DNA of 64,000 bases, taken from the NCBI GenBank assembly GCA_016188065.1, contig JACPIN010000021.1:1954-65953 (forward strand), in the 5' to 3' direction. The notes under the pieces were generated by a model. That model was given only the letters and a program-made list of their open reading frames with translations. It was not told the origin of the DNA and did not search any database. Of this stretch, positions 6,191 through 25,440 are shown piece after piece. Numbering within the stretch: position 1 is the first letter of the stretch; the number at the start of each line of letters is the position of its first letter. The DNA comes from Candidatus Woesearchaeota archaeon. GTDB lineage: Archaea > Nanobdellota > Nanobdellia > SCGC-AAA011-G17 > ARS1403. The position numbers were made by a program, and so were the translations under genes.

Positions 6191-6298
6191 TTCTGCAGGG
6201 TTAATTTTATATATTAGTTTGAGTTCTATGAAATAAGTTATATAAATTAAATTGCTAAGCTAAATAAGTTAAATAAGCTAAGTTAGTTAAGTTATTTC

Positions 6299-6436
6299 AT
6301 GACAAGAGTGAACATAGAAGTTGAGGATGAGCTGCACAAGAAGGCTAAATTAGCTGCTGTTCTGGAAAATAAAACTTTGATAGAATTCATTAATGATGCT
6401 ATTAGAGAAAAGGTTGAAAAAGGTAAAAGAAAATGA
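6299..6436 (+). CDS. ribbon-helix-helix (CopG/Arc-like) small protein, 45 aa; not in the ORF track
   Basis: Translates to 'MTRVNIEVEDELHKKAKLAAVLENKTLIEFINDAIREKVEKGKRK'; stop overlaps the next start (AAATGATG). Confidence 0.6.
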   Translation: MTRVNIEVEDELHKKAKLAAVLENKTLIEFINDAIREKVEKGKRK

Positions 6437-7212
6437 TGTTTGATGAAAAAAGAGGGCAGAGCACTATTTTCATTATAGCTGGAATTGTTATTGTTATAGC
6501 TGCTGTTCTTGTTGTGTTCTTTATGCGTGAGAATGTGCAAATTGGCGAGAGGATAACAACTGCTCAAATAGAGCCAATTAAGGAATATGTTGAGGGATGC
6601 GTTAAAGATGAATTGAAGGAAAATTTGGAAAATAGACGAGAATTCGGAGGTAGAGACATTCCTGACTTTGCTGCCCGTAAACTTCAACCAGATTATCCAG
6701 ATTACAATGTTTTAAATGTTCCAAGCAATAATCTACCGTCGTTACTTGCTATTGAAAGAGAAATCTCTATTAAGATCAAATCTAATTTAGAAAATGTTTG
6801 TACCTTAGAAAGATTTAGAGATAATTTTAATGTTGAAAAGAAAGGAGATATAGGTGTCAGAGTTAATATCTCTGACAAACTTATTGAGGTCGATGTTAGC
6901 TACCCCATTGTTATTGAGAAAGCTAATTTCAAAACTGAGGTTAAGGATTTTAATGTGATTTATGAAAATAAATTTGGAAAAATATACGGTGTTGTTAGAG
7001 ATATCTTAAATGGATTTGATGCCGGAACTAATGAGCCTATTTCCAGCTACTGCTTTGGTTCTCCTGATTTAATTTGTAATGTTGTTGAAAATAGTGGAGG
7101 GTTGATGTTTGTTCAAGTTGGTGAGGTGGATAAATTTCCTAAACCAAGCGGAAATCGATTTGTTACAGGAGATGCAAGGGAGGTTTTTACATTTGTGATT
7201 GCTAAACCATGA
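6433..7212 (+). CDS. class III signal peptide (archaeal prepilin-like) protein, 259 aa
   Basis: 'EKRGQSTIFIIAGIVIVIAAVLVVFF': [KR]G-Q followed by a hydrophobic helix. Confidence 0.65.
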   Translation: MMFDEKRGQSTIFIIAGIVIVIAAVLVVFFMRENVQIGERITTAQIEPIKEYVEGCVKDELKENLENRREFGGRDIPDFAARKLQPDYPDYNVLNVPSNNLPSLLAIEREISIKIKSNLENVCTLERFRDNFNVEKKGDIGVRVNISDKLIEVDVSYPIVIEKANFKTEVKDFNVIYENKFGKIYGVVRDILNGFDAGTNEPISSYCFGSPDLICNVVENSGGLMFVQVGEVDKFPKPSGNRFVTGDAREVFTFVIAKP

Positions 7213-9326
7213 ATAAGAAGATTTTGTTTTGGATATTTGTATTTGTTTTTTCAATAATTAATGTTCATATATCTTTCTCGCAAAGTAATGTTTGCTGCTT
7301 GGAGGCCGATGGATACTGCAGTTCTAACAAAGAGATTAATACTTGTGTGTCTGGAGGGGGAGTCTCTCTCGGAGCTGCTAGTTGCTACAAAATTGATTGG
7401 AGCTCTAATTTTAACCAGTGTTCGCTTGTTAGCTGTGTATTCTCAAATGTTAATAAATGTAGCTTTACGACTGCTTCCCGATGTCAGGCTTTGAATGGAA
7501 GAATTGACAATACTTTAGATAAAGATGGATGCAGTAGGTTCAATATTCCTATTGTTAGCAAAGGTTGTTGTGTTGTTGGTAATTCTTGCAGTCAGATTTC
7601 CAATAATGAGTGTACTCAAATGAAAGGTAATCTTGTTTCAAGAACTTGCAAAGATGTTCCTGCTTGCAACGGAAAATGTGGAGAGACGAGAGAGATTTGC
7701 AGTTCTGATGGGAGGAGAATAGAAAAATGGAATAATTGCGGACTATTAGATGCTGGAAATGAGCTTCCTAGCGATCAAAGATGTGTTCTTGAAGATGGAA
7801 GAGTTAAGACTAAAAGCACTTCTTGTAAAGTTGGCGATTCTACAATAGTAAGAAAGATGAATCTTGGGACGAAAGAGCCACTTGTCAAAGAAGAGATTAT
7901 TACAAAAGATATGCTAGGGGGATTTAAGAATGTAGAGAAAACTGAAAGAAAGAATGGAGAGAGCTGGTGTATAATTTATGGAACTGAAGATGGGAGAAAT
8001 TGGAAATTGTACCCTAAAGGGGCATTAGATGATAAGGATAATCCTTGGTCTGGTAAAAATTATAAGAAATTAAGAATTGAATACTCTGCAGGACAGAGGC
8101 ATGCAGTTTATAGCTGTCAGGATGGAAACATTGTTGTTGATGAAGGTGATCAGTTTAGGGTTAAAAGTGGGATTTGTTTTCAAAATGACGAATTCAGATA
8201 TTATCTTTTAGGTACTAGTGATGAAGATTTGGCTACTTGTGATAAAGACGCATCTATTTGGAGAACTGATACATTTCCGGATTTGGTTTTATTTGGAGAG
8301 CTTTATGATCCAAAGGAAAATGCGAATTATTTAAACTTATTAATTAATAAATTAGGAGTTAGCGGTACGGGTTCTAGAACTCGGGGGGTTAGAAATGATC
8401 CTATTAAGAATGCTTTAGCTGATTATCAGAAAGATTTTAGTCGAGCTAAATTAGTTGATAATTACGCAATTACGACTAGTTGCAGAGCAAGATATCCATA
8501 TGGTAATATTTTTTATGGTGAGAAAGCAGTGAATGATATCGCTCCTGAGCCTATATGTGGGAAATGCGGAGAGGGATTTTTTAACCGATGTGATAAAGAT
8601 GAATGCCATAGACGAGGGGATTGTAGTTATAAAGGAAGAGGATTTTTTGGGATCTTTAAAGGATGCGCAACGGGTGCTGCTATTGCTGAGATTATGTATT
8701 TAACCGCTGGTAGTGCTGGTTTACATTCTGGGGGCGGATGGGGGACTATTTTTGCCAGTCAACCTGTTGCAGGTAGCATTGCTGTTGATGTTTCTCAGCC
8801 AGTTGGAGCTGTTGGTACAGGTATACAAGGATCTGGAGTTTCTGCTGCTAGTAGTGTTGGACAAGTAAGTCCTTTTGTTTCAGGTGGAGGAACAGGAATT
8901 CCTGTGAGTGTTGGTAGTTCTACTGTTTCCTTTGGTCCTCCTACTGGTACTGGAGTTTTCACTTCAGGGGTAAGTGCAGGAACGAGTGCTGCTCAGACGA
9001 CTACTGTTCTAGTTGTTAAGGAAGGCAGTGCTTCCATGGCATCTCAGATAGCACAATATACTTCTGCAGCTGCAGCGGGTAATCAAATTGTTGCTACTTT
9101 TCGCGGACCGAGGAATTTGAGAGATGCTCCTTCACTTGATGCTGACGTTGTTGGTGTTGCTCAGAGCGGACAGCCTCTTCCGGTTGTTGAGTATAAATTG
9201 GATGGCGACAAATTATACGGGAAAACTATTGACGGTAAATGGGCTTTGTTAAATTCTCCGGATGGAACTAATCCTGCAACATTGTCTTACTCTCCTATAA
9301 ATCCTGGAGATATAAAAGGTAGTTAA
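7209..9326 (+). CDS. Cys-rich secreted/surface protein with a G/S/V/T-rich linker and a C-terminal SH3b-like domain
   Basis: Sec-type signal 'KKILFWIFVFVFSIINVHISFSQ'; many Cys; C-terminal 'LRDAPSLDADVVGVAQSGQPLPVVEY...GKTIDGKWALL'. Confidence 0.7.
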   Translation: MNKKILFWIFVFVFSIINVHISFSQSNVCCLEADGYCSSNKEINTCVSGGGVSLGAASCYKIDWSSNFNQCSLVSCVFSNVNKCSFTTASRCQALNGRIDNTLDKDGCSRFNIPIVSKGCCVVGNSCSQISNNECTQMKGNLVSRTCKDVPACNGKCGETREICSSDGRRIEKWNNCGLLDAGNELPSDQRCVLEDGRVKTKSTSCKVGDSTIVRKMNLGTKEPLVKEEIITKDMLGGFKNVEKTERKNGESWCIIYGTEDGRNWKLYPKGALDDKDNPWSGKNYKKLRIEYSAGQRHAVYSCQDGNIVVDEGDQFRVKSGICFQNDEFRYYLLGTSDEDLATCDKDASIWRTDTFPDLVLFGELYDPKENANYLNLLINKLGVSGTGSRTRGVRNDPIKNALADYQKDFSRAKLVDNYAITTSCRARYPYGNIFYGEKAVNDIAPEPICGKCGEGFFNRCDKDECHRRGDCSYKGRGFFGIFKGCATGAAIAEIMYLTAGSAGLHSGGGWGTIFASQPVAGSIAVDVSQPVGAVGTGIQGSGVSAASSVGQVSPFVSGGGTGIPVSVGSSTVSFGPPTGTGVFTSGVSAGTSAAQTTTVLVVKEGSASMASQIAQYTSAAAAGNQIVATFRGPRNLRDAPSLDADVVGVAQSGQPLPVVEYKLDGDKLYGKTIDGKWALLNSPDGTNPATLSYSPINPGDIKGS

Positions 9327-9327
9327 T

Positions 9328-12300
9328 ATGGATAAAAAAATAAAATTGCGTTTAGTATGGATTTTGTTAATTATAATCTTCTCAAGTAGCATGGTGGTTG
9401 TGCCAAATGCTTTAAGTTATGCAGGTATAGATGATGCAGTTGTTGCGGGAGTTGGTTGTATAACAGGAGCGTTTTTAGCTGGTGGAAGCTGTCGATTGTA
9501 TAACCCTCCTAAAGATAGCTATGATTGCGAAGTGTGCAATAAAAAAATTTTTGGTAAATGTACGGAGTATCAATGCAGAGCTATTGGAAGAGATTGTAGA
9601 TTTGTTCCAAGTTTAAAAGATCCTAAAGAAGGATTCTGTGTTGCCAAAGGAAAACCTGTTTATAGCTCTCCAGACATAATCTCTTGTGGCGTGATTGATA
9701 TTGCGACGATGAAACCTAAAATAGATGTTAGGCAATTTAAGGGTTCAGCAAGTTCTGTAAGTTCTGGTATTTCCACAGTCGGTTCAGGTTCAGATGGTTT
9801 GACACCAGAAACATTTACTGGAGGCGCTGTTACAAACATTGTTTATGGATGCGACCTTGGAGAGTTAGCTTTAAACAAACAATATGTATTGATATTATCT
9901 ACAGATAGAGTTGCTGAATGCAGATTTAGCAGAACGCCTAATAAGAGAGACCTTTTTGAAGTAGATCTCTTTAGAGATGTTTATGAAGATATGCCTGAAG
10001 AAGAAGCATATGGAAAAATTTTGAACAATGCCAGAAACAGTGGCATAAATTTATTTACTGAAGCGCCTAATGGTTTGGATCATTTATGGCCGATTTACTT
10101 TAACAATGGTCAAACTCCTGATCAGCAATGGACTCCTGAAAATATTGATCAATGCAATAATGGTGGCTGCACTTGGTATGCAAGGTGTGCTGATTTTGAT
10201 GGGAATGAAATGAGTCGGGATTATGTATTTAAGTTTTCTTTAGTTGATGGTGTTGGCGATATTGATCCTCCTGTTATTCTTGCTTTTGACCCCATTGATA
10301 AATTTGGAGAGGATAAATATACCCTGCCATTAGGAGCAAAAGGCGAGCTAGGAGTTAAATTTAAAGTTTCTGATTTGACCGGAGTCGAGAGTTGTGGATA
10401 TAGTGATAAAATTGTTGGATTCGAGCAGATGGTTTCTGTTAATTGCAGAATACCTACTGAAAATGAGACTACCTTTAATCTTGGTGAGCAGCCGTTTCTT
10501 AAATTATGCACTGTACCTCTTACAGGAATTAAAGAAGGAAATAATGAATTCTATTTTAGTTGCAGAGACTCTAGTGAAAAGAGAAATGTGAATCCTGTTC
10601 CTTATAAATATACTATTGTTGGAGCGAGTAAATTGTCTTTACAGATTAAAACTCCTATAGATGGAAGTACAATTGATGGGATTAATGATGTTTTGCATGT
10701 TACAACTTTTGGAGGCATTGACGGTACTGCCCTGTGTAAGTATAATTATGCTAAAGTTGGAGGGGGTGTTTCTGGGACTAATTTAGTTTTTGCTTCTGAT
10801 ACTCCTGGGTCTGAAAATAAAAAAGAGCATAAACAGGGAATTAATTTCTTAACTGAAAATGGAGAATATATTTTAACTATTAATTGCGCTGATTTTAATG
10901 ATCCTGAAAATACTGCTAATGGAGATTTGAAGATTAAGTTTGAAAAATCCCAACTTGTGATTACTAAAGAATCTCCTTCTGATCTTATTGCAGAAAGAAA
11001 TCCTATGTTAAAAGTGAAAACTAGCGGGTATGATAATGGAAGGGCTGAATGCAGGTTATATGATAAGCAGAGCATTGCTGTCTTTGATGACAGGAGCGGA
11101 GTTTCTATGACCTCTTCTGGAAATTTATTGCACCAGTTTATTTTTAAGGATTTAACTTTAGGAAAACATAGTTCTTCTGTTGTTTGCAGGTCTCTCGATA
11201 AAAATATACAAAACTCTTTAGAAATTTCTTTTGAAATTCGAGAAAATTTGCCTGTTGCTTGCACTTCACCAACTCAATGCCCTTCTTGTTCGAATGATAA
11301 ATATTGTGCTACTGTTATAGGATCTGGCAAGCATTTATGTGACCCAAATAAAGTTAAACAAAGCTGTGTTAATGGATTTTGCTCTGAGGTAAGTTGTCCT
11401 ACCGGCGATAAGTTTAGTACAGACTATTGCGAGATAAATCCGGATCCTTTATGCTTAAGCGATAAAGATAAAGATAGAATTGCAGATAATTTAGATTGCA
11501 ATGATAGATTAAGTAATATAGGACCGTGCTTAATTGACCAATGCAAGAGATGCAGTGAAGACGAGAGTAAAATAGATAATACTGGGATTTGTGTTGATAT
11601 TCCGAATTGCACTCCAAAAACTCCAACGCGGCCTCCTGGAACCGGAACAGGACAACCCACTGGGCAGTGTAAGTTAACTAAAGCTATGTGGGTTGATAGT
11701 ACTGGAAGAAATCAATTAAGCGGAAATGTTAATGAAAATACAAAAGTAAATGTTGCCTTACAAGGACAAAATTGTCAAGGACAGAGCTTCAATTTAGAAC
11801 TTTATGAATTGGATGATAGAGGATTATTAGGAAAATCTTTTGAAAAAATAAATACTTTAGATTTCCCAAGCCAAATTGTATTTGGCGATCAGGGAGCAGC
11901 ATTTGCTGAATGGGGAGTTAAATGGCTGGAAGACAATGGAGGCATTAATGATGATCCTGAATTTGTATTTAGAGCTGCTAATACTAATATCGAATCTCCT
12001 GTGATAAACGTGAAGAAAGTTCTACTGCCTTCTGGAGCTAAACAAGGCGATTCTTGTAAGACAAATGATAATTGTGATGGTAAACGGGATAGTAGTTTAG
12101 CTTGTGTTAAGATAGATCCTAACTGTCCATCTCAACCAGTACAGAGCGGAGATATAAGGATTTCAATAATAAATCCTGCTCCTGGAAAAGTATTTACTTC
12201 ACTTCCAGTTGAATTCGGCTTAGATATCAAAACTGGAGATCAAACTTTGTCGAAAGAAGAATGCGGATACTGGTTTAAATTTGGGAGATATCAGGCAAGT

Positions 12301-14397
12301 GATCTTCCTCTTGGAAATGTTCCTGATTTCAACACGTTATTTAAATTTCAAAGAATAGGAAGGGATACTACTTATCAAAGTGCAATTGTTAATTTGTATA
12401 CTGTTTTAGGTGTATCTGGACCTGCAAGTGTTAGTAGTGGAGATTATGGATACTATCTTAAATGCAAGAAAGGTGAAAAAGAAGGAGAAACAATTGGGTA
12501 CATAAATTTGAATCTCCTAACTTCTCAGGGAATTTATCATTCAGAATGCAACACTAATCGAGAATGTGTTCAAGTAAGTGGTGCTGGAACTAATAAATGC
12601 GCTATTCCTGAAAACTGCCAAAATGTTCCTACAAGTCCAAGTCATAAAATTTGTGGAGCAAACGGAAGATGCATTAATGTTGTTGGAGCTGGAACAAATA
12701 CTTGCGACGATGATAATCAATGTACAGTTACTCCTCCTCCTGCGTTGCCAAAACTTACTATCAGAAGCATTTCTGCAGAGAATACTGATACTTTAGCTCC
12801 AACACTTAATGTGGAAACAATTGGAGGAAGCAGAATTGAAAAAGATGGAAGAGCTAGCTGTGTATATGGGACAAATGTTGATGAAGTAAGGGCTGGAAGA
12901 GGGAATTCATTTTCTAATGTTCAGCCACTTTTAGACTATACAAAGCATTCTGTAAATCTAGGCGGGTTGAAAGCCGGCGATAAAATTACTTATTTTATTA
13001 AATGCACTGATACTGTAAATTCAAATATATTTGATATTAAACAAAAAGAGATTAACATTAAAATCGTTGCTGTTGATCCAAATTTACCTAAACTAAGTAT
13101 CTCCAATTTTAAAGCAATTAACACTGATACAAGAAATCCGATGATTATTTTAGATACTACTGGCGGGGTTGAAAATGGGAGAGCTACATGCAAATATAGC
13201 AATAAACTTGAAACTGTTCAAGCTGCTGGGGGAAATTCGATGATTAAATCAACGCGTATATCTTCTGTTAATCATGGTGCTTTACTATCTGACTTAATCG
13301 ATGGGAGCCATAGTTATTTTGTAAGATGCGTCGATGATAAAAATGATAGGATTTATTCTGATGCTGAAATTCAGTTTATAGTTAAGATTCCAATTGAGAA
13401 AGCTCAATGCAGTGATGGGATAGATAATGATGCGGATGGATGTCTTGATTTGCAAGATAATGACTGCCAAAATGCTGCGGATAATACAGAATCTGGAAGC
13501 AATTGCCAAGCTGCTCCTCCGATACAATTAGCACCTTCAACCTTGCGTGTTGTCAGCAAAGGACCAAGTGGAATTCAAGCAGATACAAGGGTAAATCTTT
13601 CAGTTACTTTGAGCGGCGGACCTGGCAAATATGGACAAGATGCTGAATGCAGATTTACTAATATAGCTAATAATAATTTATTGGAAGGATATGATGCAAC
13701 CCTCTTCCCAGAGACATTAGACTTTGATCCTACTAATGTTGTTTTGGGATCTACTGTTTATCGCAATGAAATAAATTTGGATAGAATTGGAGATTATACT
13801 TACTATGTTAAATGCAAGGATAATCTTGGAGGGATAACTGTATTACAAACTATTCCATTTAAAGTAGAGATTCCTGCAAGCCAGCAGATTAGCATTGTCA
13901 GAAAATCTCCTGAAGGAGTTTATGGAAGCAAGAATGTTGCGATTGCAATTGAGACCAATGGCGGATTGGATAATGGGGCTAGCGTTAACTGTAATTATCA
14001 AGGGATTATTGGCGGTGGAATCTTAACCAAGCAGCAGATTGCTGGAGGCAGATATGCACATCTTGCAATTGTTCCTAATGTTCCTAATGGAAATTATACT
14101 GCTACAGTAAGTTGTGTTGATAGAGCTAACCAAATTGCATCCACTACTTTAAACATTGATGTGCAAGAGGATTTAATTGTGCCTGTTGAGCAACTGATTA
14201 TAACAAAGGGAAGCAGCAAGTTTATTACTGTTAGCGAGGCTGCTGAGTGCGAAGCTTCTACAGACAATGTTAATTGGCAGAAAGTCGGAAGCGACCAAAA
14301 TAAAAGGAAACATATTGTTACTTTGAGCGGAACTTATTACTTTAGATGCAAGGACTTGTGGAATAATCAGATGCAGACAATTATAATTCATCCATAG
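9328..14397 (+). CDS. giant (1689 aa) secreted protein with about eight Ig-like repeats that each carry a conserved Cys pair, plus Cys-knot-like linkers
   Basis: N-terminal TM/signal; recurring 'G..(A/T)(E/T)C(R/K)Y ... Y(F/Y)(V/I)(K/R)C.D' units; 'CSDGIDNDADGCLDLQDNDC' motif. Confidence 0.75.
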   Translation: MDKKIKLRLVWILLIIIFSSSMVVVPNALSYAGIDDAVVAGVGCITGAFLAGGSCRLYNPPKDSYDCEVCNKKIFGKCTEYQCRAIGRDCRFVPSLKDPKEGFCVAKGKPVYSSPDIISCGVIDIATMKPKIDVRQFKGSASSVSSGISTVGSGSDGLTPETFTGGAVTNIVYGCDLGELALNKQYVLILSTDRVAECRFSRTPNKRDLFEVDLFRDVYEDMPEEEAYGKILNNARNSGINLFTEAPNGLDHLWPIYFNNGQTPDQQWTPENIDQCNNGGCTWYARCADFDGNEMSRDYVFKFSLVDGVGDIDPPVILAFDPIDKFGEDKYTLPLGAKGELGVKFKVSDLTGVESCGYSDKIVGFEQMVSVNCRIPTENETTFNLGEQPFLKLCTVPLTGIKEGNNEFYFSCRDSSEKRNVNPVPYKYTIVGASKLSLQIKTPIDGSTIDGINDVLHVTTFGGIDGTALCKYNYAKVGGGVSGTNLVFASDTPGSENKKEHKQGINFLTENGEYILTINCADFNDPENTANGDLKIKFEKSQLVITKESPSDLIAERNPMLKVKTSGYDNGRAECRLYDKQSIAVFDDRSGVSMTSSGNLLHQFIFKDLTLGKHSSSVVCRSLDKNIQNSLEISFEIRENLPVACTSPTQCPSCSNDKYCATVIGSGKHLCDPNKVKQSCVNGFCSEVSCPTGDKFSTDYCEINPDPLCLSDKDKDRIADNLDCNDRLSNIGPCLIDQCKRCSEDESKIDNTGICVDIPNCTPKTPTRPPGTGTGQPTGQCKLTKAMWVDSTGRNQLSGNVNENTKVNVALQGQNCQGQSFNLELYELDDRGLLGKSFEKINTLDFPSQIVFGDQGAAFAEWGVKWLEDNGGINDDPEFVFRAANTNIESPVINVKKVLLPSGAKQGDSCKTNDNCDGKRDSSLACVKIDPNCPSQPVQSGDIRISIINPAPGKVFTSLPVEFGLDIKTGDQTLSKEECGYWFKFGRYQASDLPLGNVPDFNTLFKFQRIGRDTTYQSAIVNLYTVLGVSGPASVSSGDYGYYLKCKKGEKEGETIGYINLNLLTSQGIYHSECNTNRECVQVSGAGTNKCAIPENCQNVPTSPSHKICGANGRCINVVGAGTNTCDDDNQCTVTPPPALPKLTIRSISAENTDTLAPTLNVETIGGSRIEKDGRASCVYGTNVDEVRAGRGNSFSNVQPLLDYTKHSVNLGGLKAGDKITYFIKCTDTVNSNIFDIKQKEINIKIVAVDPNLPKLSISNFKAINTDTRNPMIILDTTGGVENGRATCKYSNKLETVQAAGGNSMIKSTRISSVNHGALLSDLIDGSHSYFVRCVDDKNDRIYSDAEIQFIVKIPIEKAQCSDGIDNDADGCLDLQDNDCQNAADNTESGSNCQAAPPIQLAPSTLRVVSKGPSGIQADTRVNLSVTLSGGPGKYGQDAECRFTNIANNNLLEGYDATLFPETLDFDPTNVVLGSTVYRNEINLDRIGDYTYYVKCKDNLGGITVLQTIPFKVEIPASQQISIVRKSPEGVYGSKNVAIAIETNGGLDNGASVNCNYQGIIGGGILTKQQIAGGRYAHLAIVPNVPNGNYTATVSCVDRANQIASTTLNIDVQEDLIVPVEQLIITKGSSKFITVSEAAECEASTDNVNWQKVGSDQNKRKHIVTLSGTYYFRCKDLWNNQMQTIIIHP

Positions 14398-16338: not shown

Positions 16339-17296
16339 AAAAGGTATTGCAATTACTTTTGACTGGATGTTTTCAATAGTTGCCGGAGTTTTGATATTTT
16401 CCTTTCTTATTTATTTTGCTGTGCAGAACACTGATTTATTTGGAAAAGTAACTGCTAGAATTGTTTCTGAAGAACTTGATATCTTATTTTCTGGATATGA
16501 AACTGCTCAAGTTAGTACTGTGCTAGATTTTGGCAGAGAAGCTACATTGGATTTTAGATGCGATGAGATAAATAAAAGACAAAAATTTATGATTAATGAT
16601 AGAGAAGGAAAAAATTTGTGGGGCAAGATAATTTTTGCTCCTAAGAATGTTAAAAGTGACAAAATAAATGTGGCTACTGCTAGTTGGAATGCCCCTTTCA
16701 GGGTTGCTAACTTTGTTTATTTGTGGGATAAAAGATATCTGTTAGATTATGATTCTGATTTAGAGCTTCCTGAATGGGTTAATCCTTCTGCTTCTGGAGA
16801 TATTAATATTAAATTTGCACGTGATTCCAGTTTGGCTTTGAGTTCGTCTTCAAGTTTTGATTGTTCATACAATTTCAGGACTTCGAATAATGAAGAATAT
16901 GATAAGGTGATTTATTATGATAAAAATCCCTCAGATGATGATGTTAGAGGGTATGTTTGCTTCAAGGGCAAAGAAAAATCTTTTTTCTATGGCGAGGCAA
17001 TGATGATTGGTGCTATTTTTTCTGAAAGCAAAATAGAGTTTGACTGTGTTAAGGATATTGCTGTTGATAGATTAAAGATTGTGAATGATATTTATACAAA
17101 GAAGGTAAGTAATTTGATTATTTCTGATAGAAGCTGTAATCCTAATTTTGGTGCTTCTTATAATAATGCAGTTCATGAGATTGATAATAATGGCATGCTA
17201 GAAAAAGATTTTGATTCATTTGACTTTGGTTATGTTAATAGGATTAGAAGTGCAAATCAAAATTTAATATCTACGGGGTGTGCAGGTGTCTATTAA
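16319..17296 (+). CDS. class III signal peptide-like protein (ATG at 16319 preferred over the GTG at 16310)
   Basis: 'MVSRLNKKGIAITFDWMFSIVAGVLIFSFLIYFAV'. Confidence 0.6.
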   Translation: MVSRLNKKGIAITFDWMFSIVAGVLIFSFLIYFAVQNTDLFGKVTARIVSEELDILFSGYETAQVSTVLDFGREATLDFRCDEINKRQKFMINDREGKNLWGKIIFAPKNVKSDKINVATASWNAPFRVANFVYLWDKRYLLDYDSDLELPEWVNPSASGDINIKFARDSSLALSSSSSFDCSYNFRTSNNEEYDKVIYYDKNPSDDDVRGYVCFKGKEKSFFYGEAMMIGAIFSESKIEFDCVKDIAVDRLKIVNDIYTKKVSNLIISDRSCNPNFGASYNNAVHEIDNNGMLEKDFDSFDFGYVNRIRSANQNLISTGCAGVY

Positions 17297-17780
17297 TCAT
17301 AGAGGACAATTAGAAATAGGAATTACTACAATGGTTTTGATAGTATTTATTGTCTTACTGTTATTGAGCTTAATTCTTTATTTTAAGTTTACTTATTTAG
17401 AACTAGAAGAAGATAGAACGACTTTGTTAGACCAAAAATATAACAGCATTTTAAGCGTGATTATTGGCTTGCCAGAATTTAGATGCAGCAGAGGTGGGAT
17501 TGAAAGTGAATGCTTGGATGCTGCTAAACTCTCTGCATTTTCTGGAGTTTATGCAAGCAACAAGGAACATTATGGTAATATATTTGGCACTGTCAATGGA
17601 ATTTGGGTCGATGTTCCTGTTAATGATGTGAATAATTTGAATTATCCTGATCAAGGAAGATTTTCAGTATATGGAAAAGCTGATTTAAAAGGAGGGATTT
17701 ATTCTGTTCCTGTTTCATTATATTATCCTGAATCAAAAAAATATAAAATAGGAATTTTGAAGATTAGGGGGGAGTTATGA
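17280..17780 (+). CDS. class III signal peptide (prepilin-like) protein (GTG start)
   Basis: 'NHRGQLEIGITTMVLIVFIVLLLLSLILYF'. Confidence 0.6.
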   Translation: MQVSINHRGQLEIGITTMVLIVFIVLLLLSLILYFKFTYLELEEDRTTLLDQKYNSILSVIIGLPEFRCSRGGIESECLDAAKLSAFSGVYASNKEHYGNIFGTVNGIWVDVPVNDVNNLNYPDQGRFSVYGKADLKGGIYSVPVSLYYPESKKYKIGILKIRGEL

Positions 17781-18202
17781 AACGAGGTCAGGCTGAGATT
17801 ATCGGACTTGTGATAGTTGTTTTGTTGCTTGTGTTTGCATTGATATTTTTTGTTAAAATAAAGGGTTTTGAAGATGATAATGAGAGCAGACTGATAAGAA
17901 GCAATTTGAGAGCGAATAGCGCCTTGAATGCGTTGATGAAAGTGCATATTGAAAACGATAAAAAACAGATGAAGGACTTGGTTGATGACTGTATAACTGC
18001 TTCTAAAGATTGCGATAGTGTTGAGAGAAAGTTAAGAGAAGCTTTGCTTTATGCTTTTGAAGACAATATTAATTATAATCTTACGGTGTATAGGGGAGAT
18101 GTAGCAGATATAAGTCTTGGTAGAACTTGTAAGAGCAGCATAAACGCTAGTCCGTTTATTATAAGATCTAATGGTAAAGTTGAACTTAAAATTTGTACTT
18201 AG
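17777..18202 (+). CDS. class III signal peptide (prepilin-like) protein
   Basis: 'MKRGQAEIIGLVIVVLLLVFALIFFV'; ATGA overlap with the upstream gene. Confidence 0.7.
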   Translation: MKRGQAEIIGLVIVVLLLVFALIFFVKIKGFEDDNESRLIRSNLRANSALNALMKVHIENDKKQMKDLVDDCITASKDCDSVERKLREALLYAFEDNINYNLTVYRGDVADISLGRTCKSSINASPFIIRSNGKVELKICT

Positions 18203-18265
18203 TTAGTAAGTTAGTTAGTAATTTACTAAGAAAACTTTATATATCTTGAAATAATTGATGAATTG

Positions 18266-18388
18266 ATGAAAAAGTACCTTCTTCTTATTGAGGATGAGAA
18301 ACTTTGGGAAAAATTCAAAGAATCTATTAAAAACGATATCAATAGCGAAATTATTGAGATGATTAAAAAGAAGGTGAAAGAAAGATGA
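18266..18388 (+). CDS. small RHH-like protein, 40 aa; not in the ORF track
   Basis: Translates to 'MKKYLLLIEDEKLWEKFKESIKNDINSEIIEMIKKKVKER'; stop overlaps the next start (AGATGATT), as at 6299-6436. Confidence 0.5.
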   Translation: MKKYLLLIEDEKLWEKFKESIKNDINSEIIEMIKKKVKER

Positions 18389-20340
18389 TTTTTTGGGGTA
18401 AACGGGGGCAGATGACGCTGTTTATTATAGCTGGCATAGTTATCCTATTCGCTGCCTTCTTTATTGGCTACTTGCAGAATGAAAATTTTAGGCAGAGAGT
18501 TGAGAGCCAACTCTTTGGAGTTAGCGTTGTTCCTGAGCAGGCGAAAGGAGTTGTGAGCTACATAAATAATTGCATAGAGAACATTGCTAGCGACGGGGTT
18601 GAACTCTTAGGATTTCAGGGAGGGTATCTTGATGTTCCAAATTCTTTGAGTTCGAGAGAGTATTTACAGCCAGATCCTTTAAGCAAAGTTCCTTACTGGG
18701 TTTATGGAAATAAAGTTGTTGTTCCCTCTCCAGGGCAGATGGAATCCCAGTTAAAGAGCTATATAGATAGAAGGGCGAATGTTGAATGTGATTTCAATGC
18801 TTTTAGCGATTATGAATTTAGTTCTGAACAGATATCTACGAATGTTAAAATATCTGACGGAGGGATTTTAGTTAATTTAGATTCTGATATCGATGTTAAT
18901 ATAAAAGACAGTGTTTATTCTTTAGATGATTATATTAGTGCAAGCATTCCTGTTGATTTAAGTTTGTTATATGATCTTGCTGTTGATATTGTTAATAGGG
19001 AAATGAGAGAAGGCAAAATAGGAAGAGCTCCTTTTGAGTTGGCAACAAAGGAGTTGATAGCAAGCCATTCTAAAGATGAAAATAGTAGACTTAGCATTCC
19101 CCCTATTGGTAAATTAGATTTTAGCTGTAATCCTAAAACTTGGCTGATGGAAAATGTGAAAGAGAATATAAAAGAAATTTTGAGTGATAATATGAGATTT
19201 TTGCGTGTTGAAGGTGCTGGTAATCTTGACTATGGGGAGGATTATGTTAACCTATTTGTAGATGATGTTTTTTCGTCAGAACATTTAGATGTTGGGATAG
19301 ATTTTAACTACAATAAAGAATGGCCTTTATTTTTAGACATTTATCCAAGAAATGGAAGGGTGCTGAAACCAGATACTTTGAAAATTGGACTACCGTTTAT
19401 TTCTTTATTCTGTACTACAACATATAACTTTAGATACACTTTAAGATATCCGTTAATGGTTAATTTGGAAAATGACGGGTTTATATTTAGGTTTCCTATT
19501 GAGGTATTTATTTTAGATAATTATGCTGGGAGAGATATTGAAGGGGATGTTTCTCGTGTCAGTTTTGCTGACATAGAAAGTGAATTTTGTAATAAAGGGC
19601 AGAGATTGAGTGAAGACATAAACATTGTTACAATTGATGCAACTAATAGACAACCGCTGTCTGATGTTCAAGTTATGTATGTTTGCGGTGTAAACAACTG
19701 CGTTATTGGAGATACTAAATTGGAAAGTGGAGAGGTTAGACTTAATAGTAAATTTCCTTTGTGTTACAATGGTGAGATAAGATTAAGCAAGGAAGGTTAT
19801 GGAGAGTTTACTCAGGAATTAACAACTCTAAATTCTAAAAGCACGAGAATATTTGGCGTTATGAAACCTTTTATAGAAAAAGAAATTGAGCTTAGAGTTA
19901 TTGATCTTAGCGATGGGATTACTAGTGTAAGAGAGTTAAATGAAAATGAGATAGCTAGTGTGCAGTTTAATATTTTGGAGAATGGCATGATTAAAAATCA
20001 GATTGGTGTTGTATTCGAAGGGGATGGTATCGAGAAAATTGAGTTGTTGCCTGAGCAAGAATATAATATTTTGATAAATTTAGTTTTGAATGATAAAGTT
20101 GTTATTCCTAAAGGTAAATATGGAGAACAAGAAATTCCCTCTCAGGAATTGGAAAATATTTTGCTAGGTGGAGCAGATTTCAATGCTTACACCTCAGAGG
20201 AGGATTTGATGAAGGACAAGATAATTATTTTTGCCTTGTCTAATGGTATTCCGAAAAATTATCAGGACTATATTGAGGGCTTTGATATGAAAGCATTAAG
20301 CGAATTAAATCAAGATAAACTGGAGTTGAGGTTTGAATGA
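18385..20340 (+). CDS. large (651 aa) class III signal peptide protein, paralogous at its N-terminus to 6433..7212
   Basis: 'GKRGQMTLFIIAGIVILFAAFFIGY' versus 'EKRGQSTIFIIAGIVIVIAAVLVVF'. Confidence 0.7.
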   Translation: MIFWGKRGQMTLFIIAGIVILFAAFFIGYLQNENFRQRVESQLFGVSVVPEQAKGVVSYINNCIENIASDGVELLGFQGGYLDVPNSLSSREYLQPDPLSKVPYWVYGNKVVVPSPGQMESQLKSYIDRRANVECDFNAFSDYEFSSEQISTNVKISDGGILVNLDSDIDVNIKDSVYSLDDYISASIPVDLSLLYDLAVDIVNREMREGKIGRAPFELATKELIASHSKDENSRLSIPPIGKLDFSCNPKTWLMENVKENIKEILSDNMRFLRVEGAGNLDYGEDYVNLFVDDVFSSEHLDVGIDFNYNKEWPLFLDIYPRNGRVLKPDTLKIGLPFISLFCTTTYNFRYTLRYPLMVNLENDGFIFRFPIEVFILDNYAGRDIEGDVSRVSFADIESEFCNKGQRLSEDINIVTIDATNRQPLSDVQVMYVCGVNNCVIGDTKLESGEVRLNSKFPLCYNGEIRLSKEGYGEFTQELTTLNSKSTRIFGVMKPFIEKEIELRVIDLSDGITSVRELNENEIASVQFNILENGMIKNQIGVVFEGDGIEKIELLPEQEYNILINLVLNDKVVIPKGKYGEQEIPSQELENILLGGADFNAYTSEEDLMKDKIIIFALSNGIPKNYQDYIEGFDMKALSELNQDKLELRFE

Positions 20341-23300
20341 GATTAAAAATAATTGCTTTGCTTATTGTACTTTTAATAGCAGGAGTTAACTTTCATGCAT
20401 CTATTGCTTTAGCCCAGATTCAAGGAAGCACTGGAAGTCCTCAATTTGGTAATGCTTATGACAGCGATAGTGACGGGATATGTGATGCGCCTAGAGGAAG
20501 TGCAAAGCATCAGGGACAAAGTGGATTTAGTTCACTTGGATGCAATGATAATGCATATGGTGATTTGTGCCCTGGTACCTTTTTGAATGATAGGCCTGTT
20601 GGAAGTAGCTCTACTAATAGCGGATGTGGTCCGAGCCAGACTGCTAGATTGATAAATTTTTGGAGTGTTTCGAGAGGCGAATTAACGCCTAAAACATTAA
20701 AAGTAAATTGGATTACCGATACTAGAAATGGTGTTTTGGTTTATCAAATAATTAACCTTATTAGAAATCCTGTATTTTCTAATCGCAAGATTGAGTTGAG
20801 AGATGTTAGTGTAAGCTGTGATTCTGGGACTGGGATAGATAAAACTAGTGGGCAGTATAGGGAAATTCCTGGGGGGTTTATTTCTGATGCTAGAATTGTT
20901 CCTGCGGATGATACGCAAAATGAGGGGAGAGCGATTCAGTTTAGTGTGAGACAGAGATCTGATCAAGATGTGAGAACTAAGAGTGCAATTGCCCTTGCTT
21001 CAGAAAGGATAAAAGGCATAGATGAAATTAAAACAACTTGTAGAATAACAATAAACCAATGTGAGAAAGATGGTAAAACAGGAGACTGTTTTCCAATGTA
21101 TCCTGCTGAACAAGATGAAATAGATTTTTTTATTCCTATTGATACTTTGGCTGTTCAGCCTCCAGAGTTTGCATTGGCTGCTGGCATTGATTTTGCTGAA
21201 AAGACAATTAAGATTACAGATGATTTGATTCATAAGTTTACTAAGATTTATCAATTTACATTAAAGTGGTGCAGTTATTCTATTGCTGCTGTATTGGCTA
21301 CTAAGTTTCTGAAATTTATTACCGGTGGTTTTGGTGATTTAGCCGAGTTGATTTGGTATGGCCCTGAAGGATTGAGGAGATTTGGTTTTGAAGAGAAGAG
21401 CTTTGTTATAAGTGGGAGAAGTATGTGTGCTGCTGCTCTCTGTCCTAAGAACTGGTGTAAGTTTGCCAATATTGAAACTGGTCAGAAGCAAGTTCAGGAA
21501 TATGTTGATTTGGATAAGGATGGAAAACCAGAGACACCTGTATGGGAGCAAGATGAGAAAGGGAATATTAAATATTATCCTGGAAAAGATGGAGGAATAA
21601 CAACTACTCCAATTCCCAAACTAACAAGTCAAAAAATTACATTAGGAAGCAAAACTGTAAATATTCAGGATAGTTTAATCTTGAGTGCTGGATGTGGCTG
21701 TATTAGTGGAATTTTAACTAATTTATATGAGATTAGAGCTATTGCCGATTCTTGGAGAACTTGTTTGCTTGAGGCTAAGACTGGAGGGGCTTATACTGCC
21801 AGATGTGATCAGTTATTGAATCATGGAATTTGCAAATTTGTTTTACAGGAGCTTGATTCTTTCCATGGAACTGATTTATTAAAGAGAGCGTTTAGCGTTG
21901 ACAAAGGGGGGGTTCTAGGTGATGGAGAAACTAGAGGTGCGACTGAAGATGCCAGAATAGCCCAAGGACTAAAAGAAAAAGTTAAAGACTCTGTAGATGA
22001 TGCTAAGAGGTTTGCTAAGGATGATTTGGTTGAATTAGGAATGGCAGCTGGCGGTGGTGTTTTGGGTTATAATGAATTGCAATTAGAGAGTACAATTTGT
22101 TCACTTGCAATATATCAAAGACTTCCACAGATAGATGCATTTACAAGATTTGATTTTAACAGACCTGTATTAAAAACAAGCATTTCATTAAACTGGGATT
22201 CTAAACCTTTATTCCAAACGCCTACAGGAGAAAGGATGTTTGAGTATAGTCTTGACTGGATGATTTTAGCTGGAAGGGATAATTTGAGATATGAAGTTTA
22301 TTTGGAATCTTTTGATGGAAAGAGAAGCCCGAGATTGGATAGACAAAGCGGTTATTTGAATAGAGCAGGTGATTATCATAGTGACTTTGTTCAGATTTTA
22401 GACACTACTGATTATACAAGGGCATGTGTTAGCATTCCTAATGAATTTCCTGAACCGAGATGTTTCCCAATTGGGAAGGGAGGAGACGATACTATTTTTG
22501 GCGAGTTTAAAGTATATGGTGTTGAGTTAGATACAGATAAGGATGGGATGCCGGATGAATGGGAATTAGAAATGGGATTTAAACCCGATGATGCAAGAGA
22601 TGCTGCTCAAGATGAAGACATGGATGGTTTGAGTAATTTGAGAGAATATTCTTTAGGAACAAATCCTAAATCTGCTGATGATCCTGGTAACAAGCCGCTT
22701 AGTGTCGAATTTGCTCGAAGTGATTGCAGGGCAGTGTTCAATAAAGACATTGAATTCCTTGGCAAGACTGAAATTATTCCTCGATATCAACTAGGAGATA
22801 TGATTGAAGTAAATCCGGTTAGTTTAGTAACTATAACAAGGCCTAGCGACGGGGTGCAGATAAAAGTAGAGATTACTGGTGAGGGTGTTAATTTCAATAA
22901 AATTGTTAGAATTAATGCTCATGATGTTGCCAATAATGCCCGGTTTGTTGTGTGGGGTATTCCCAAAATAGGAGCAGAGGTTCCTTATGGTGGTATGTAT
23001 AATATTAAATTTAGTCTAGTTAAAAGTGCTGCTCTGAGCGATCCGTTATGTGGAGATGAAAGAGGATTAACTATTAATTCAATAAGGGAAAAAAAGATTG
23101 TTATTTATGATCCGGCTTTTAGCGGTTGTTCTGATTTTGGCGGGCATGATATCTCAAGACAGCAAGCTTGTATTTCTGGAAACGGAAACGTTCAAATTAA
23201 AATTGATGAATGCGTAGCTGATGGAAAACTTGTTGAGTATTCTTGCAAGGAAAATCAATGCGTTTCACAACTTGTTGGATGCCCTACTGGAAGTGTTTGC

Positions 23301-23981
23301 CAGAATGGAAGGTGTACTTTAGCAAAAGAAGTTAAGATCCCTATTATCCCTATTCCAACTGAGCCTGCTAAAGTTATTCCTGTACCTACACTTATTCCTC
23401 CCGGACCTTATGCTACAGAGCCTACGACTGGTACTATCTTTGAACAAACCAAAACCAATCTGGGCTATCCCGGAGGAGAGACATTTAATTATGTTAGGAA
23501 TACTGTGAAAGAGATTTTTGGTGATTCAGCAGCTACAGCATTACCTTTAATATTAGGAATGATTACCCAGGAATCAAAGGGAAACAGAGAAACCAAGCCG
23601 TCTTCAAAAGGAGCAATCGGTTTAATGCAGATTATGCCTGACGCTCAGAGTGATGTTAACTCTTACTTAAGAGGAAAAGGGATACAAGCAACTAAGGAAC
23701 GGGGGATATGGCAGGACAATGTTTATATCGGAGTTTTGTATTTCAAATTTCAAATTGATAAATATAAAGATTTTAAGTCTCAAACTGACAACTATAATGA
23801 GGTTAAATTAGCATTGGCTGCTTATAATGCCGGACCTGGATTTGTCGACAGAGCATGTACTACTCTTAAAAATTTTGAAGAGTGCAAATCTTTCTTGCCG
23901 AAGGAAACTCAAAATTATGTACCTTCTGTTATGAAGCATGCAGAGGCATGGAGAGGAGAGCTTAAAATACCTGGTGTTTGA
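20337..23981 (+). CDS. 1214-aa secreted protein with TSP3-like Ca-binding repeats and a C-terminal lytic transglycosylase (SLT/GH23) domain
   Basis: Signal peptide; 'DTDKDGMPDEWE...DEDMDGLSNLREYSLGTNP'; 'GMITQESKGN', 'GAIGLMQIMP', 'LAAYNAGPGFV'. Confidence 0.8.
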   Translation: MRLKIIALLIVLLIAGVNFHASIALAQIQGSTGSPQFGNAYDSDSDGICDAPRGSAKHQGQSGFSSLGCNDNAYGDLCPGTFLNDRPVGSSSTNSGCGPSQTARLINFWSVSRGELTPKTLKVNWITDTRNGVLVYQIINLIRNPVFSNRKIELRDVSVSCDSGTGIDKTSGQYREIPGGFISDARIVPADDTQNEGRAIQFSVRQRSDQDVRTKSAIALASERIKGIDEIKTTCRITINQCEKDGKTGDCFPMYPAEQDEIDFFIPIDTLAVQPPEFALAAGIDFAEKTIKITDDLIHKFTKIYQFTLKWCSYSIAAVLATKFLKFITGGFGDLAELIWYGPEGLRRFGFEEKSFVISGRSMCAAALCPKNWCKFANIETGQKQVQEYVDLDKDGKPETPVWEQDEKGNIKYYPGKDGGITTTPIPKLTSQKITLGSKTVNIQDSLILSAGCGCISGILTNLYEIRAIADSWRTCLLEAKTGGAYTARCDQLLNHGICKFVLQELDSFHGTDLLKRAFSVDKGGVLGDGETRGATEDARIAQGLKEKVKDSVDDAKRFAKDDLVELGMAAGGGVLGYNELQLESTICSLAIYQRLPQIDAFTRFDFNRPVLKTSISLNWDSKPLFQTPTGERMFEYSLDWMILAGRDNLRYEVYLESFDGKRSPRLDRQSGYLNRAGDYHSDFVQILDTTDYTRACVSIPNEFPEPRCFPIGKGGDDTIFGEFKVYGVELDTDKDGMPDEWELEMGFKPDDARDAAQDEDMDGLSNLREYSLGTNPKSADDPGNKPLSVEFARSDCRAVFNKDIEFLGKTEIIPRYQLGDMIEVNPVSLVTITRPSDGVQIKVEITGEGVNFNKIVRINAHDVANNARFVVWGIPKIGAEVPYGGMYNIKFSLVKSAALSDPLCGDERGLTINSIREKKIVIYDPAFSGCSDFGGHDISRQQACISGNGNVQIKIDECVADGKLVEYSCKENQCVSQLVGCPTGSVCQNGRCTLAKEVKIPIIPIPTEPAKVIPVPTLIPPGPYATEPTTGTIFEQTKTNLGYPGGETFNYVRNTVKEIFGDSAATALPLILGMITQESKGNRETKPSSKGAIGLMQIMPDAQSDVNSYLRGKGIQATKERGIWQDNVYIGVLYFKFQIDKYKDFKSQTDNYNEVKLALAAYNAGPGFVDRACTTLKNFEECKSFLPKETQNYVPSVMKHAEAWRGELKIPGV

Positions 23982-24784
23982 TTATGAATTTGAATTTTTT
24001 AAAATTATTTCTGGAAAGCCTGAAAATATTAAAGAACAAGAAAATATTTGCCTTATTCGGAATTGAGTTTCTTTTCTTTTTGTTATTGATGATTCTTGCT
24101 TTAGTAACGGTGACTTCTGTTGCTGAAGACGTTAATCAACTAAGAAATTTCCAGCAGGAATTTACTGTCGATGAGAATGCGAGCGCGAATTATCTGTATG
24201 AAAATCTTCTTTCTCTTTCCAATATATTAAATGACCTTATCAAAATAGTTATTGCTGCATTTATAATCCTCTTCTTTATCTCGGGTTTATTTAATGGGAT
24301 TTTATGGAAAGCGAGCGTTAATTTGATACATGGAAAACCACTGTTTAAAGATTATAATAAAAGATATTTCCTTAATTTTTTCTTGTTAACTTTCATTTGG
24401 TTTGTTGCTTTTGCTGGTGTGTTTTACTTACTTTATCAATATGGATTCAGCTATGGCGTTTTTGCAATAATTTTAATTTTGTTTTTCTATTCTGCTTGGA
24501 TTAATTTTAGCTGTTATGCGCTTGATAAAAACTTCAGTTCAATTATGAGGGGATTTGTTTTTGCAATAAAGAAACTTTATATTTTTGTACCTGCCTTTGT
24601 GCTGCTTGCAGTTATTTTATTTTTAGGCTCTTATGCTTTTGGAGTGTTTAATAATTTTTTTGTTTCTTTTTTGGCAAGTATATTTTTAGTATTTATTTTT
24701 GCATGGTTCAGAATTTTCTTGATAACGATTTGCGGGGAACAGGATTCGAAACCTGCCAAGAAATCTGCTGATAATAAATATTAA
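23978..24784 (+). CDS. multi-pass membrane protein, last gene of the cluster
   Basis: about six hydrophobic helices; start overlaps the upstream stop. Confidence 0.6.
   Translation: MIMNLNFLKLFLESLKILKNKKIFALFGIEFLFFLLLMILALVTVTSVAEDVNQLRNFQQEFTVDENASANYLYENLLSLSNILNDLIKIVIAAFIILFFISGLFNGILWKASVNLIHGKPLFKDYNKRYFLNFFLLTFIWFVAFAGVFYLLYQYGFSYGVFAIILILFFYSAWINFSCYALDKNFSSIMRGFVFAIKKLYIFVPAFVLLAVILFLGSYAFGVFNNFFVSFLASIFLVFIFAWFRIFLITICGEQDSKPAKKSADNKY
24732..24757. repeat. degenerate copy of the 3' end (acceptor plus T-arm) of the nearby tRNA-Leu gene; candidate att-type direct repeat
   Basis: 'gcggggaacaggattcgaaacctg' versus 'gcgggagacaggattcgaacctg' at 25441; same orientation. Confidence 0.5.
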
Positions 24785-25405: not shown

Positions 25406-25440
25406 TTTAATAATGAATGATTTCAGTCTTTTTAAATATT

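Follow-up and report, generated by a model that had tools for sequence, protein, structure and literature searches.

A Woesearchaeota and Pacearchaeota operon of pilin-like proteins and giant cysteine-rich exoproteins as a candidate apparatus for contact with bacterial walls

Why would an archaeon end a giant exported protein in a lytic transglycosylase, when we know of no archaeon that makes murein, and encode it among pilin-like proteins? The question is raised by a 64,000-nucleotide (nt) stretch of a Candidatus Woesearchaeota genome (contig JACPIN010000021.1; hereafter the window), in which a cluster of 13 co-directional plus-strand open reading frames (ORFs) at 6299-24784 encodes pilin-like, giant Cys-rich and small regulator-like proteins. 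The window has a GC content of ~34% and encodes PCNA, TFIIB and FtsZ, marking it as archaeal, and the nearest homologues of the cluster proteins lie in metagenome-assembled genomes (MAGs) labelled Woesearchaeota, Pacearchaeota or Nanoarchaeota.

We put a probability of about 0.55 on the following answer: the cluster is an operon complex specific to Woesearchaeota and Pacearchaeota, encoding an apparatus at the cell surface, where giant adhesin-hydrolases borne by pilin-like proteins are presented to the walls of bacteria. The evidence centers on the B family, represented in the window by the pilin-like protein B651. We mapped the ORFs surrounding B in 87 loci (numbered from L001). Almost always, B is followed at once by a same-strand, Cys-rich protein of ~950-2600 amino acids (aa); 68 of the 87 junctions span 20 nt or less and 45 are overlaps. 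Because this adjacency is near-invariant and translationally coupled, it argues for a physical complex of B and giant. The initial annotation of the window had proposed a unit for attaching to another cell and locally opening its wall. Its conservation as a unit, an intact SLT domain and the lack of a nearby motor agree with that proposal, whereas the membership of an ATPase and a wall-binding SH3b module did not survive.

Gene order and conservation of the cluster

Fourteen tightly packed plus-strand genes had been reported. We count thirteen, and their co-direction and overlapping stops and starts stand: overlaps of 4-29 nt mark eight of the twelve junctions, and a single nucleotide separates the genes at another. 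Real gaps occur only twice, 121 nt before the ATPase gene and 60 nt before the microprotein gene sm41. The features of the cluster, in order, are:

6206-6294 (+): promoter and leader of sub-operon 1, TATA-like boxes followed by TAAG(C/T)TA tandem repeats up to the ATG
6299-6436 (+): rhh1, 45 aa, ribbon-helix-helix (RHH)-like, with sub-threshold RHH profile matches; its stop overlaps the next start
6433-7212 (+): A259, 259 aa, a short B-family paralogue; N-terminus KRG-QSTIFIIAG
7209-9326 (+): S705, 705 aa, a Sec-type Cys-rich exoprotein with 32 Cys
9328-14397 (+): G1689, 1689 aa, a giant Sec-type Cys-rich adhesin-like protein with 68 Cys
14519-15841 (+): archaeal ATPase, 440 aa, ATPase_2 and DUF234 domains (Pfam, 3.7e-26 and 2.1e-23)
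15838-16338 (+): p166a, 166 aa, small pilin-like protein, MKRG-QTQEIF, Glu at +4; found in nine orthologous loci
16310-17296 (+): p328, 328 aa, larger pilin-like protein, NKKG-IAITFDW, no Glu, conserved Cys
17280-17780 (+): p166b, 166 aa, small pilin-like protein, HRG-QLEIG, Glu at +3
17777-18202 (+): p141, 141 aa, small pilin-like protein, KRG-QAEIIG
18197-18244 (+): promoter of sub-operon 2, a TTAG/TAAG array (18197-18230), then AAGAAAAC-TTTATATAT (B recognition element (BRE)/TATA-like, 18228-18244)
18263-18388 (+): sm41, a 41-aa microprotein, MKKYLLLIEDEKLWEKFK..DINSEI..; its stop overlaps the start of B651
18385-20340 (+): B651, 651 aa, B family, with a class III-like N-terminus (KRG-QMTLFIIAG), an alpha/beta domain and CnaB/transthyretin-like tandem beta-sandwiches
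20337-23981 (+): SLT1214, 1214 aa, a Sec-type Cys-rich giant with a C-terminal GH23 lytic transglycosylase (nt ~23541-23876)
23978-24784 (+): T268, 268 aa, T family, polytopic by transmembrane count (~8 segments)

The window carries two paralogous modules, A259-S705-G1689 and B651-SLT1214-T268, with the four small pilin-like genes joining them. A259 is related to B651 over its N-terminal ~170 aa (BLASTP, E=4e-12) and has orthologues of 243-270 aa in L003-L005, and the summed size of S705 and G1689 is about that of the single giants at other loci. The order of twelve genes is conserved in full in L001-L006, L009 and L012, with proteins 36-65% identical: a small RHH-like gene, a 243-270 aa B-like protein, a ~600 aa Cys-rich protein, a 1400-2400 aa giant, four small pilin-like genes, a 40-aa gene, a ~650 aa B, a ~1200 aa SLT or amidase protein and a ~260 aa multi-membrane-span protein. 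That the genes form one unit, as had been proposed, is borne out by this order, which recurs beyond this genome. The downstream housekeeping genes are alike in the window and in L001-L003, the loci with downstream sequence on which the comparison rests: LSM, S8e, TFIIB, a metallo-beta-lactamase-fold protein (296 aa, with Lactamase_B_4 and tRNase Z-type Pfam matches) and a tRNA-intron endonuclease. Because both the gene order and the housekeeping flanks are conserved in relatives, the cluster is, on comparative grounds, a vertically inherited chromosomal unit. In another clade the arrangement differs: B precedes a giant of ~1800 aa, and a ~188-aa pilin-like protein and a further large protein come next. 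The T family is found alongside the B-giant pair in 28 of the 87 loci, located after the giant in some and immediately before B in others.

This position bears on whether the cluster could be an integrated virus or mobile module, for example a tail fibre with a virion-associated lysin, a reading that we find barely credible. Phage tail proteins can be very long with a C-terminal SLT, a BFVD search returned weak matches (to generic lysozyme (endolysin) and FN3 domains only), and variable ATPase and ORF6N genes are inserted inside the cluster of some genomes. Set against this, B relatives number zero among the 2.9 million contigs of IMG/VR, the locus keeps its chromosomal position beside the same housekeeping genes at 36-51% identity, and no capsid, terminase or integrase gene was found in the window.

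The ATPase is one such insert. Its domain assignment in the initial annotation is sound; its membership of the unit is not, since the gene is missing from most syntenic loci. No DUF234 gene occupies the ATPase position in L002-L006, L009 or L012, and L001 has a different ATPase (AAA_14/DUF4143) there, with a DUF234 gene elsewhere on the opposite strand. Judged by synteny, the DUF234 ATPase is a variable insert, and we rejected it as the system's motor because it is not conserved.

More generally, the gaps between conserved cluster genes are insertion hot spots. In the window, 14519-15841 holds the DUF234 ATPase gene, whose stop overlaps the p166a start, and the inserts of L001 (1698-3002, 3488-4381 and 6354-7544) comprise the AAA_14/DUF4143 ATPase, an ORF6N-domain gene and the DUF234 ATPase on the other strand. 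The cluster is flanked upstream (4942-6190) by a winged helix-turn-helix protein and a DUF6036 nucleotidyltransferase and downstream (25768-26352) by a DUF2204-like nucleotidyltransferase. In relatives, MazE/PIN and RHH/PemK pairs lie downstream of the locus, and toxin-antitoxin-like genes accumulate around it. Directly downstream of the window's cluster, at 25440-25537 (-), Rfam finds a 98-nt tRNA (47 bits) that ARAGORN missed and that probably contains an intron.

Giant proteins and their enzymatic ends

S705, G1689 and SLT1214 had been described as large, Sec-exported and Cys-rich, and we find Sec-like N-termini and Cys contents of 4.5%, 4.0% and 2.6%, respectively, against 1.5% in 17 other window genes. 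Their proposed modules fared unevenly. The S705 orthologues (599-622 aa) are without the C-terminal Gly/Ser/Thr-rich linker and SH3b-like tail, which is specific to the window genome. This tail scores below threshold (SH3_3, E=2e-4, 21.8 bits, cut-off 27) and is missing in the L003, L005 and L009 orthologues, so we rejected SH3b as a conserved wall-binding module. G1689 contains an acidic double-disulfide (TSP3-like) repeat and Ig/PKD/MG-like repeats. The Ig-like call is weak in G1689 itself (Big_13, E=0.024) and firmer in its orthologues, which are 1387-2378 aa long, hold the equal position and carry Big_13 (5e-10), MG2, PKD and TSP3_bac; the structural models contain beta-sandwiches. The TSP3 repeats are visible as invariant DxDxDG motifs in SLT1214, although precomputed TSP3_bac matches in homologues are mostly faint. 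Across loci the giants are very divergent, with one Cys-rich helical module common to them.

SLT1214 combines the TSP3-type DxDxDG repeats, beta-sandwiches, the conserved Cys-rich helical module at aa ~445-575 and a C-terminal GH23 domain, and has 16 full-length homologues that are 28-65% identical. The prediction of a terminal SLT lytic transglycosylase was upheld by several lines of evidence. Pfam PF01464 matches aa 1069-1180 at 51.5 bits (cut-off 21.3), with the catalytic motifs QESKG at aa 1078, GLMQI at 1095 and AYNAG at 1162, and the catalytic Glu, E1079, is invariant in an alignment of the 16 homologues. The domain aligns to Slt70-family catalytic domains, with the equivalent motifs of P. 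aeruginosa Slt. A Foldseek search with the C-terminal domain returned MltE, MltC, MltF and g-type lysozymes (probability 1.0, target TM-score 0.33-0.64), the TM-score being about 0.6 for the MltE/g-type lysozyme fold. By its conserved residues, the domain looks catalytically intact. One homologue, from a marine relative, carries Amidase_3 in place of SLT; because the SLT is thus replaced by a peptidoglycan amidase, murein is the likely target. Overall, the AlphaFold model of SLT1214 consists of beta-sandwiches and long helices (predicted local distance difference test (pLDDT) 66, predicted TM-score (pTM) 0.37). We considered and rejected a PilY1-like propeller in this protein, whose model holds beta-sandwich, helical and lysozyme-like parts only.

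An enzyme of this kind might also serve the cell that makes it. Dedicated lytic transglycosylases accompany many bacterial envelope-spanning machines (FlgJ, VirB1), and NCBIfam gives a weak match to a flagellar-assembly lytic transglycosylase; by analogy, the SLT or amidase would open a murein-like layer made by the archaeon itself to let surface structures through. We hold this to be very unlikely, as murein synthesis genes were not found in the window, archaea are not known to us to make murein, and the nuclease and lipase cargo of relatives does not fit.

That cargo emerged from a Pfam survey of 48 large proteins downstream of B in divergent loci. FGE-sulfatase-like domains occurred in five members, SLT in four, Glucodextran_B domains in three, Peptidase_M15_4, DUF2272, GDSL esterase and Exo_endo_phos (EEP) nuclease in two each, and Phage_lysozyme2 in one. 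Taken with the Amidase_3 swap, the survey shows that the scaffold is conserved whereas the hydrolases it carries are exchangeable, and that these are mostly enzymes directed at the murein of bacteria. In one distant Woesearchaeota locus (L016, 17956-21150), the second large protein after B joins a GDSL/SGNH esterase-like domain to SLT, a pairing that suggests peptidoglycan de-O-acetylation followed by glycan cleavage.

Would such enzymes need to be held at the surface at all? They could be secreted antibacterial or scavenging exoenzymes acting at a distance, with the pilin-like genes encoding an ordinary adhesion pilus that merely shares the operon. The Sec signals of the giants and the diversity of the lytic domains are in keeping with this; archaeal peptidoglycan hydrolases that kill bacteria are documented (PMC12352652), and a 'vampiristic' reading of Woesearchaeota SLT genes has been published. 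We nevertheless think it rather improbable. The coupled B-giant adjacency described above argues for a physical complex, a scaffold of ~1000 aa or more of Ig, TSP3 and Cys-rich modules is excessive for a free enzyme, and the T membrane protein is linked to the pair as well.

Elsewhere in the window, 32749-35805 (+) encodes a 1018-aa Sec-type Cys-rich protein with no Pfam match, a zincin HELGH motif and, by eye, two N-terminal-side dockerin/EF-hand-like repeats (DFDDNGCVNLEDFF, DLDGNKKIDVEDFF). This could be one more hydrolase that the organism secretes or displays at its surface.

Pilin-like N-termini, the B family and candidate regulators

We scanned the N-termini of all ORFs of at least 60 aa on both strands of the window for [KRH][GA] followed by a strongly hydrophobic 20-mer. 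The scan yielded exactly six ORFs, all inside the cluster, plus one chance match within a 60-aa ORF. Five of the six read [KR]G-Q, and p328 reads KKG-I. In the EppA-processed pilins of Methanococcus maripaludis the leader ends in Gly and Gln stands at +1 (PMC3875500), and the Gly(-1)/Gln(+1) pattern of the cluster N-termini agrees with this signature. Hence, of the six class III signals proposed initially, the leader and hydrophobic helix hold in all six and Gln(+1) in five; the curated models, considered below, give no match.

In the p141 orthologues (n=9), the Gly, the Gln and Glu(+3) are invariant, and in p328 K10 and G12 are. Glu lies at +3 in p141 and p166b and at +4 in p166a, and A259, p328 and B651 have none. 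Among pilin-type profiles the matches were weak, to DUF7288 (p141, E=0.012) and BasB (E=0.02) only, and the p328 and p141 profiles found nothing significant among all Protein Data Bank (PDB) sequences. When p141 was used to start an iterative search, the N-terminal helix that it shares with B carried the search over into that family, and we dropped it as evidence for minor pilins. At 1854-2498 (+), the window encodes a 214-aa membrane protein in which two hydrophobic segments at the N-terminus precede an SCSM motif; its Pfam matches are weak and unrelated, and inspection by eye suggests a likeness to type I (Sec11/S26) signal peptidases.

The N-terminus is also the best-conserved segment of B, reading [KR][KR]-G-Q-[VI]-T-[IL]-F-I-I, while the remainder is 25-30% identical. 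Gly(-1) is invariant, and Gln(+1) is present in 54 of 56 divergent B proteins. This is the pattern that would be expected of a peptidase site and assembly helix, unlike that of a plain signal-anchor. In the mapped loci B is 610-800 aa long. When one genome per species was scanned with the B alignment, B relatives turned up in at least 280 stretches. A profile search of the family recovered 7049 representative clusters (E<=1e-3), of which 1462 reached E<=1e-30. No Pfam model covers the protein, its profile found nothing significant among all PDB sequences, and there are no relatives in IMG/VR, as noted above. The 80 fetched B loci carry Woesearchaeota, Pacearchaeota or Nanoarchaeota MAG labels or are unclassified archaea, bar some Methanosarcinales and one Gammaproteobacteria. 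The operon-bearing bins with these labels (L008 and several of L020-L086, from binchicken/co-assembly MAGs) are probably mislabelled.

In the AlphaFold (AF2) model of B651 (pLDDT 78), helices at the N-terminus (6-77) are followed by an alpha/beta domain and a CnaB/transthyretin-like sandwich stalk. In Foldseek the stalk resembles Ig-like domains of Gram-positive pilins and adhesins, and the model also matches the S-layer protein SlaB (8qox_B, E=4e-5, probability 0.99, with a TM-score of only 0.14-0.19). The latter match introduces the main rival explanation, a two-component envelope akin to an S-layer in which B would be a SlaB-like stalk, the giant a SlaA-like canopy, the hydrolases add-ons and the N-terminal motif a mere signal-anchor. 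The B-giant pairs of the 87 loci, one or two per locus, are adjacent like slaA/slaB, the partners are large and fast-evolving, and no pilus motor was found nearby. We nonetheless judge this reading unlikely. The low TM-score reflects generic beta-sandwiches, and strict [KR]G-Q conservation is needless for a plain anchor. Cys contents of 2.6-4.5% and enzymes that vary from genome to genome are unusual for lattice proteins, and dedicated small regulators with repeat operators point to expression that is regulated and not constitutive. The reading would also fail to account for the four extra pilin-like genes with an invariant Glu.

T268 is the multi-membrane-span protein reported initially. Its family (32 members) has no Pfam relative. 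We rejected T268 as a diverged prepilin peptidase or platform, since the family has no invariant column beyond the initiator Met and no conserved acidic or GxGD-type motif.

Two small genes had been called RHH-like. rhh1 matches RHH families below threshold only (HicB 1.4e-3, ParD 6.7e-3, TacA, VapB and YlcI N-terminal), and 43-aa orthologues occupy the equivalent place in L003 and L004. The sm41 profile matches nothing in Pfam, NCBIfam or the PDB, with pArc appearing only at E=5, and sm41 is possibly an Arc-like RHH regulator by its residue pattern. Its conservation is high, with 522 protein clusters at 77-95% identity, and its codons vary at synonymous positions while the amino acids are invariant. 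The gene lies directly upstream of B in ~30 loci and is far better conserved than the B protein to which it is coupled.

Upstream of sm41, in 26 distinct loci, stand 4-6 TTAG/TAAG units followed by AAGAAA(A/C)NTTTATATA. The repeat arrays go with sm41, at 4.1 versus 1.06 TAAG/CTTA per best 40-nt window (background 1.18), an indirect point in favor of the RHH reading, and those of sub-operon 2 were also detected by Tandem Repeats Finder (TRF). Sub-operon 1 has TATA-like boxes at 6206-6214 and 6238-6246 and repeats at 6256-6294 (TRF period 9/18); the last ~45 nt of its leader are nearly identical in L004, where the proteins are only ~30% identical. We infer that rhh1 and sm41 could be autoregulators and the TAAG repeats their candidate operators. 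A scan for sigma-70 promoters and intrinsic terminators was uninformative, the organism being an archaeon. The window also encodes, at 61374-62738 (-), a 454-aa ORF with borderline Pfam matches to bacterial sigma-70 regions 2 and 4 (region 4 at 25.6 bits, cut-off 24.1).

The proposed apparatus and known systems

How might these parts work together? In the apparatus that we favor, a class III (EppA/PibD-type) peptidase, its gene lying elsewhere, would process the six [KR]G-Q N-termini. The small subunits that carry Glu would then assemble with p328, A259 and B651, which lack it, into a short stalk or tip complex resembling a pilus, or at minimum into a pedestal in the membrane, and B and A would hold the Sec-exported giants at the distal end of the stalk. 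The giants, as disulfide-rich, Ca-binding exoproteins, would bind a partner cell through their Ig, PKD and TSP3 modules, and the terminal GH23 domain would locally cut the glycan strands of bacterial murein; relatives would deploy an amidase, M15 peptidase, lysozyme, esterase or nuclease instead. Each sub-operon would answer to a small RHH-like protein of its own, acting at operators of TAAG repeats next to the TATA box. Signal cleavage, assembly of a filament or pedestal, B-giant binding, the bacterial target and the regulation are thus proposals drawn from gene content, as would be an episymbiotic lifestyle on bacteria. A broader version is more tentative still: that the machine is universal in Woesearchaeota and Pacearchaeota, a pilin-like tip or pedestal without an in-cis motor whose interchangeable wall-, membrane- and nucleic-acid-degrading ends breach bacteria, switched by sm41 on TAAG operators.

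Several observations weigh against a pilin-based apparatus. Pfam Class_IIIsignal/DUF361 and the NCBIfam archaeal pilin models matched none of the six N-termini, as full proteins or isolated, even at E<=10. The pilin hallmark of Glu at +5 is present in none of the six, with Glu at +3/+4 instead and missing from B. Foldseek matched no type IV pilin to the B651 or SLT1214 models and no PilY1-like beta-propeller to the latter, whose model is of moderate confidence. The block of four small pilin-like genes is found in ~10 of the 87 loci, only in the clade close to the window, and no major pilin is evident. The window encodes no FlaI/PilB ATPase, FlaJ/TadC platform or A24 peptidase, as the initial annotation had stated, and a motif-based search for the ATPase only found no FlaI/PilB type within 10 kb of B in any of the 87 loci. 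The RHH label of sm41 is drawn from pattern alone. A preprint reports type IV pilus systems to be missing from DPANN genomes; Makarova et al. describe FlaI/TadC loci in some DPANN (PMC4858521).

The stakes are considerable for archaea of this kind. Few uncultured archaea rival Woesearchaeota and Pacearchaeota in abundance and diversity, and the operon is a concrete, lineage-wide candidate for the molecules with which they attach to and feed on other cells. It comprises thousands of pilin-like proteins that no Pfam model covers; the partner of each is a giant exoprotein, often ending in an enzyme directed at the murein of bacteria. If the proposal is right, it would lend molecular support to the view that many DPANN live on bacteria rather than archaea and provide markers for finding hosts, with cargo type set against co-occurring bacteria. 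Archaeal enzymes active against bacteria would be a further yield, as would a simple pair of regulator and operator, the 40-aa protein and its repeats, that lends itself to tests in vitro.

Among known systems, the archaeal type IV pilus loci termed Epd or 'system 1', which occur in Methanococcales and in some DPANN (Makarova et al. 2016, PMC4858521), are alike in their co-directional genes with Gly-ending leaders, Gln(+1) and a hydrophobic helix, and in their large secreted, often Cys-rich putative adhesins, fast evolution and silence in Pfam. Unlike them, the cluster has no in-cis ATPase (87 loci), platform or peptidase and no PilY-like propeller, its Glu is at +3/+4 or absent, its dominant pilin-like protein is 610-800 aa with an alpha/beta domain and sandwich stalk, and its partner is lytic. 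Bacterial minor-pilin tips, such as GspH-I-J-K of the type II secretion system and FimU-PilVWX with PilY1 of type IVa pili, are alike in that a complex presents a large non-pilin protein. GspK is the larger, Glu-less member of a set of four pilins, as p328 is among the cluster's four. Modular pilins such as S. sanguinis PilB (PMC8179133) likewise fuse a pilin module to functional domains. The likeness to bacterial minor-pilin complexes is an analogy only, with no sequence or fold match, across domains of life and with assembly only proposed for the cluster.

Polymorphic toxins and contact-dependent effectors similarly join a conserved scaffold to variable enzymatic ends (here SLT, amidase, M15 peptidase, lysozyme, esterase and nuclease); unlike in those systems, we identified no immunity genes, no Rhs/PAAR/LXG-type trafficking domains and no known secretion machine. 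SlaA/SlaB of Sulfolobales are alike in having adjacent genes for a one-helix beta-sandwich stalk, the source of the Foldseek match, and a very large outer protein. They differ in that the B anchor is N-terminal and pilin-like rather than a C-terminal transmembrane segment, the TM-score is low, and the partners are Cys-rich and carry enzymes.

The cluster had also been put forward as an undescribed system, and this is true in part. Large extracellular SLT proteins of Pacearchaeota and Woesearchaeota have been reported as fam00969 (Castelle et al. 2021, PMC8204110) and as a 'large lytic murein transglycosylase' (Vigneron et al. 2022, PMC9723730), where they are read as binders or degraders of bacterial walls. 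SLT1214 and its 16 homologues fit the fam00969-type description of a >1000-aa extracellular Woesearchaeota or Pacearchaeota protein with an SLT domain. A term search showed that neither pili nor pilins are named in the two papers and brought up no account of the operon, nor did we find one in the literature on DPANN with pilins and lytic transglycosylases. Besides its pilin-like partners, the operon goes beyond these accounts in the T protein, the 40-aa microprotein, the repeat promoter and the exchange of SLT for other hydrolases; sm41 and the conserved TAAG-repeat/TATA promoter before B are new here.

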